DNA of 28,560 nt from Escherichia coli (GTDB lineage: Bacteria > Pseudomonadota > Gammaproteobacteria > Enterobacterales > Enterobacteriaceae): assembly GCF_003334815.1 (NCBI RefSeq), contig NZ_QOWO01000045.1. One strand, written 5' to 3'. Positions 17,095 through 17,127 of the stretch are shown piece after piece. The notes under the pieces were generated by a model. That model did no database searches and was not told where the DNA came from. It saw nothing but the letters and a program-made list of their open reading frames with translations. The translations under genes and the position numbers were made by a program. How positions within the stretch are numbered: position 1 is the first letter of the stretch; each line of letters opens with the position of its first letter.

Positions 17095-17127
17095 TGTAAA
17101 CCAAATTGAAAAGATTTAGGTTTACAA
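17095..17127. promoter_or_regulatory. bioO: bio operator (BirA binding palindrome) within the divergent bioA / bioBFCD promoters
   Basis: Imperfect palindrome TTGTAAACC-N15-GGTTTACAA between the divergent bioA and bioB starts. Confidence 0.75.

Follow-up and report, generated by a model that had tools for sequence, protein, structure and literature searches.

Biotin-responsive repression of biotin synthesis genes has been described in several forms in bacteria. In E. coli, BirA makes biotinoyl-5'-AMP, and the holo form dimerises and binds cooperatively to the operator bioO, with two subunits on two half-sites and a possible bend of the DNA (PMC5640590). The operator is located at the promoter -35 and -10 sites, the promoters are termed 'face-to-face', and this is the only BirA site of E. 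coli (PMC5640590). A forty-base-pair BirA site is named in the title of Streaker and Beckett (1998), as cited in PMC4462617, and the BirA consensus TTGTAAACC-N14/15-GGTTTACAA is attributed to Rodionov (2002), as cited in PMC545781. The bioO, bioY and yhfU operators of B. subtilis and S. aureus are inverted repeats too, and the protein that binds them is a dimeric group II biotin-protein ligase dependent on biotinoyl-AMP (PMC4016012). On the other hand, their half-site sequence and spacing are unlike those of E. coli, B. subtilis BirA binds E. coli bioO very weakly (PMC4016012), and there are several BirA sites in these bacteria versus one in E. coli (PMC5640590). BioR of the GntR family and BioQ of the TetR family are further biotin-responsive repressors of biotin synthesis genes (PMC5640590), although they and their motifs are unrelated to BirA and bioO.

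The stretch of E. coli DNA analysed here (the window, 28,560 bases) carries a palindrome between bioA and the divergently oriented bioBFCD operon. It is almost certainly bioO, the biotin operator of this divergent gene pair bound by BirA in E. coli, and as such it is an already known element that has been textbook biology since 1978. The value of locating it is thus one of annotation only: the bioA start is fixed at 17086, a spurious 466-aa open reading frame is removed, and the only BirA site in E. coli, missing from the annotation of genome records, is marked.

An exact search for TTGTAAACC and GGTTTACAA separated by 10 to 22 nucleotides finds a single site over the whole window, at 17094-17127 with a spacer of 16 nt, and the same search finds no site in 100 dinucleotide-preserving shuffles. 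The palindrome that the earlier note had reported here is real, although its start at 17095 and its N15 spacer were miscounted by one base; the N15 probably goes back to the consensus in the literature, where N14/15 is printed. No second BirA site with fewer than four mismatches to the motif is found in the 28.5-kb window. Recognised by its inverted repeat and by its identity with MG1655, the operator as a whole occupies 17091-17130 (GACTTGTAAACCAAATTGAAAAGATTTAGGTTTACAAGTC), a 40-bp imperfect palindrome that is complementary at 16 of 22 positions about a symmetry centre at 17110.5. Its two ends are perfect 12-nt arms. The left half-site, GACTTGTAAACC at 17091-17102, includes the consensus 9-mer TTGTAAACC at 17094-17102, and the right half-site, GGTTTACAAGTC at 17119-17130, includes the consensus 9-mer GGTTTACAA at 17119-17127, in which position 17126 is polymorphic (A or G) in E. 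coli. All 18 arm positions match TTGTAAACC-N14-16-GGTTTACAA. A repeat finder reports somewhat longer arms of 15 nt (17091-17105 and 17116-17130) with 93% complementarity. The spacer between the half-sites, AAATTGAAAAGATTTA at 17103-17118, is A or T at 13 of its 16 positions and differs in sequence among species. The arm centres are 28 bp apart, or about 2.7 helical turns.

E. coli K-12 MG1655 matches the window with 100% identity over 701 bp around the site, a segment that 5420 of 5426 complete E. coli genomes contain; over 15157-28485 the window is 99.97% identical to MG1655. Because of the complete identity over 701 bp, the palindrome is the characterised bioO sequence itself. Comparison with K-12 bioO, one check that the earlier note had named, thus returns identity: the whole gap between bioA and bioB and its flanks are the same, with the same genes on both sides, and the operator is without differences, whereas the strain background differs in a defective lambdoid prophage at attB and in IS10-type elements at both edges of the window. 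The published probes lead to the same place. Henke and Cronan used a 125-bp 'E. coli bioO' gel-shift fragment amplified from MG1655 with the primers SKH026 and SKH027 (PMC4016012), which have perfect matches in the window at 17048-17071 and 17147-17172 and bracket 125 bp (17048-17172). A biotinylated bioO oligonucleotide given in a supplementary table (PMC12914326) corresponds to 17086-17135, although each of its strands as printed deviates by one base, an effect that we attribute to typesetting or machine reading. For this identical sequence, BirA-biotinoyl-AMP binding or biotin-dependent repression has been reported (PMC4016012, PMC5640590, PMC4462617, PMC12914326). A full-text literature search for the spacer sequence returned no paper, and none of the records searched, the K-12 RefSeq record included, annotates an operator feature here. 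The sequence and position of the element, its K-12 identity, its conservation and the domains of K-12 BirA were all determined in this analysis.

Gene coordinates were obtained by transferring the RefSeq annotation of MG1655 with a coordinate offset of 201, and the gene identities and the divergent layout proposed by the earlier note agree with this annotation of identical DNA. bioA, encoding adenosylmethionine-8-amino-7-oxononanoate aminotransferase (429 aa), lies on the minus strand at 15797-17086. On the plus strand, the bioBFCD operon extends over 17173-20776 according to the transferred annotation and the list of open reading frames, with bioB at 17173-18213, bioF at 18210-19364, bioC at 19351-20106 and bioD at 20099-20776. 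A Shine-Dalgarno sequence for bioB, GGAG at 17162-17165, is read directly 7 nt ahead of the ATG, and TTTTGGAGA is kept in most Enterobacterales. The start codons of bioA and bioB are separated by 86 bp. The 40-bp element lies 4 nt from the bioA ATG at 17086 and 42 nt before the bioB ATG at 17173, so that it does stand between the two start codons, as the earlier note had it, but off-centre rather than exactly midway.

A mechanically called open reading frame at 15797-17197 (466 aa) extends bioA by 37 in-frame codons (17087-17197, minus strand) over the operator and the start codon of bioB on the opposite strand. This extension had been taken as non-coding by the earlier note, a judgement that is borne out by the annotated start at 17086, by the homologues and by in-frame stops in relatives. 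In 21 relatives, the BioA alignment begins at residue 1 of the 429-aa protein, and the codon there is an ATG that matches 17086; in Candidatus Pantoea persica it also begins at residue 1, but the codon is TTC. The translated 37 codons are absent from every homologue alignment, and in all relatives except one the upstream extension is ended by an in-frame stop after 0 to 48 codons. In the exception, Enterobacter sp. BIGb0383, the frame ahead of bioA runs on for 416 codons without a stop, antisense across the entire bioB, and is most likely a chance shadow reading frame opposite a conserved gene.

Conservation was examined at 80 loci with relatives of BioB, one genome per species, whose selection relied on the protein, independently of the motif. 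Each site was scored by its mismatches to both 9-mers, with the spacing allowed to range from 12 to 20 and with 784 segments of 470 nt from the same loci as controls. Sites with at most three mismatches are found upstream of bioB at 47 of the 80 loci versus none of the 784 controls, and at five mismatches or fewer the counts are 71/80 and 53/784. Related bio intergenic regions of other Gammaproteobacteria thus keep the arms, which goes against the lack of conservation that the earlier note had named as a refutation of its reading. The 47 sites were chosen by similarity to the consensus, which makes their arm composition partly circular as evidence; the contrast with the controls is not circular. 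Twelve of the sampled Enterobacteriaceae share this gene arrangement, and in every one of them the site has 0 or 1 mismatch and a 16-nt spacer and lies 70-82 nt before the bioB start. When 19 gaps from Enterobacterales are aligned, the left arm keeps GTAAA and the right arm G-TT-AC without exception, whereas the spacer and the stretch from the right arm to the ribosome-binding site of bioB drift. All 47 sites share the GTAAA of the left arm as well. BirA regulon sites of other bacteria have the same 9-mer arms at the same position upstream of biotin genes, and many of those outside Enterobacteriaceae have GGTTGACAG as the right arm. Of the 47 sites, 28 have a spacer of 15 nt, 15 one of 16 nt and 4 one of 14 nt. 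Its length is 16 nt here and in other Enterobacteriaceae versus mostly 15 and sometimes 14 nt in Vibrio, Pseudomonas and others. The mean A/T content of the spacer in Enterobacteriaceae is 0.90. In many pseudomonads, no divergent bioA homologue is present within the 2.5 kb fetched upstream of bioB.

Variation within E. coli concentrates attention on one base of the operator. The 86-bp gap is identical to the window, with A at 17126, in 3226 complete E. coli genomes, and the G allele (GGTTTACGA) is present in at least 1919, the number that match a query with G exactly. Four genomes sampled evenly from the non-identical remainder differ solely by A17126G, the eighth base of the right 9-mer. G also occupies the equivalent position in E. 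albertii and in 10 of 12 other sampled Enterobacteriaceae (11/13 in total). Since G is common in relatives, the A allele of K-12 with its perfect 12-bp symmetry may well be the derived form. If 17126 affects the affinity of BirA, it is conceivable, though rather unlikely, that the two alleles set different thresholds of biotin repression among natural E. coli lineages.

The birA gene is absent from the window, and the repressor was read in K-12 MG1655. BirA of this strain (b3973) contains HTH_11 (E 8e-13), BPL_LplA_LipB (7e-32) and BPL_C (6e-13), the group II architecture that is required for operator binding; the operator region of MG1655 is identical to that of the window. Binding, cooperativity, promoter overlap and start sites are taken from the literature or inferred, and on this basis a mechanism can be proposed. 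BirA, which is a biotin-protein ligase as well as a repressor, would dimerise when holding its own intermediate biotinoyl-5'-AMP, and the two N-terminal winged-helix domains of the dimer would bind cooperatively to the 12-bp half-sites at 17091-17102 and 17119-17130 across the 16-bp A/T-rich spacer. The spacing of 28 bp between arm centres and the roughly 90% A/T spacer of Enterobacteriaceae would fit a need for distortion of the DNA. The 40-bp site would cover the -35 and -10 elements of the rightward bioBFCD promoter and the -10 element of the leftward bioA promoter, and bound BirA would keep RNA polymerase off both, so that the five genes would be repressed together. Scarcity of biotin, or consumption of biotinoyl-AMP by unbiotinylated AccB, would lift repression.

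A standard promoter scan of 16950-17300 finds no promoter in the gap between bioA and bioB. A relaxed hexamer scan gives one candidate in each direction, both with a score of 7/12. The candidate bioBFCD promoter (17094-17122, plus strand) has -35 TTGTAA at 17094-17099, a 17-nt spacer and -10 TAGGTT at 17117-17122, with a predicted start at about 17129, and its hexamers fall wholly within the operator. The candidate bioA promoter (17119-17146, minus strand) has -35 TTGTTA at 17146-17141, a 16-nt spacer and -10 TAAACC at 17124-17119, with a predicted start at about 17112, and its -10 hexamer falls in the right half-site. Decoys of equal score accompany both, and because the hexamers are weak and the decoys score equally, promoter positions cannot be fixed from the sequence. 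The hexamer assignment of the bio promoters reportedly goes back to Otsuka and Abelson in 1978. The rightward bioBFCD promoter remains a candidate drawn from that assignment and from the statement that bioO is located at the promoter -35 and -10 sites (PMC5640590), and the leftward bioA promoter is a putative one deduced from its hexamers. The description of the promoters as 'face-to-face' (PMC5640590) has no obvious fit with the predicted starts, at about 17129 for the rightward promoter and about 17112 for the leftward one.

A palindrome can also work as a nucleic-acid hairpin, that is, as a stem-loop of a leader RNA, a bidirectional terminator or a DNA cruciform, instead of a protein site. 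The RNA of 17087-17134 indeed folds into a stem of 16-17 pairs with an energy of -19.6 kcal/mol (z = -7.8 versus shuffles). However, this energy is uninformative because any perfect palindrome folds, no run of T follows the stem, and a terminator scan of 16950-17300 finds none. Given the likely start sites, neither mRNA would hold both arms. The arms themselves are more telling: at position 5 of the right arm, G replaces T (GGTTGAC) in 31 of the 47 sites, although its partner in the left arm is A in all 47, and the resulting A·G mismatch in the middle of the stem points to recognition of half-sites rather than to pairing. Since the substitution is never compensated, it argues for a protein-binding site over a hairpin, and the hairpin, despite its stable fold, is rejected as very improbable.

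If a protein site is accepted, its main ligand could in principle be a regulator other than BirA, as birA is outside the window and the pairing of site and repressor comes from the literature; no positive support for such a regulator was found. BirA binding assays have employed this same sequence, and the BirA consensus that it fits tracks biotin genes across phyla (PMC545781). In addition, mutants in the DNA-binding domain of birA lose repression, as reported in the literature, which speaks against another main regulator. The chance of such a regulator is negligible. A chance feature or a relic without present function is equally hard to credit. In its favour is only the general fact that short palindromes arise by chance, and it is refuted by conservation: the 18/18 match occurs in 0 of 100 shuffles, the site is kept across genera at the same position relative to bioB versus 0/784 controls at three mismatches or fewer, and the arms stay invariant while flanks and spacer drift. 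BirA binding to bioO is thus the reading retained. One caveat to it is the 16-nt spacer versus the published N14/15, although 16 nt equals the spacer of all close relatives; no evidence that contradicts bioO was found. K-12 identity, the published probes, the consensus match and the conservation jointly uphold the BirA-biotinoyl-AMP operator that the earlier note had proposed.

The rest of the window contains mobile elements and known RNA elements. A degraded, defective lambdoid prophage occupies 159-15156 at the lambda attachment site beside ybhB-bioA and ends at attR; the exact att core GCTTTTTTATACTAA is at 15157-15171, where identity with K-12 starts. Its right part (about 9257-15156, with tfa, ea47, ea31 and ea59) shares about 99.7% identity with the lambda prophage of J53; for its left part, 100% identity is seen only with strain 52F4, in which essD, rrrD, rzpD, bor, ybcV, ybcW, nohD, a truncated lom and a tail fibre are annotated. 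In this left part, a truncated terminase gene abuts a truncated tail-tip gene, and the lysis cassette is DLP12-like. The window was also considered as a K-12 lambda lysogen, which was rejected since only about 9257-15156 is close to lambda and the remainder is a different degraded lambdoid prophage. The two edges of the window, 1-158 and 28486-28560, are ends of an IS10-type element, elsewhere annotated as an IS4-like ISVsa5 family transposase. The left end finishes with GGGGATCTCTCAG at 158. The right end, an insertion into the gap between ybhL and ybhM, begins at 28486 with CTGATGAATCCCC, whereas K-12 has a different sequence from there on; the contig probably broke at repeated IS copies. 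Among RNA elements, a full-length Rfam match to IS009 (RF02111, 221.7 bits) is found at 9749-9947 on the plus strand, inside the tail-fibre-assembly gene region of the prophage, and a match to the sRNA ES036 (CssrF) is found at 23435-23476 on the minus strand in the uvrB-yvcK gap (43.4 bits versus a gathering score of 37.6). The molybdenum cofactor riboswitch (RF01055, 103.6 bits), a known element that is annotated in K-12, precedes moaA at 24741-24885 on the plus strand.
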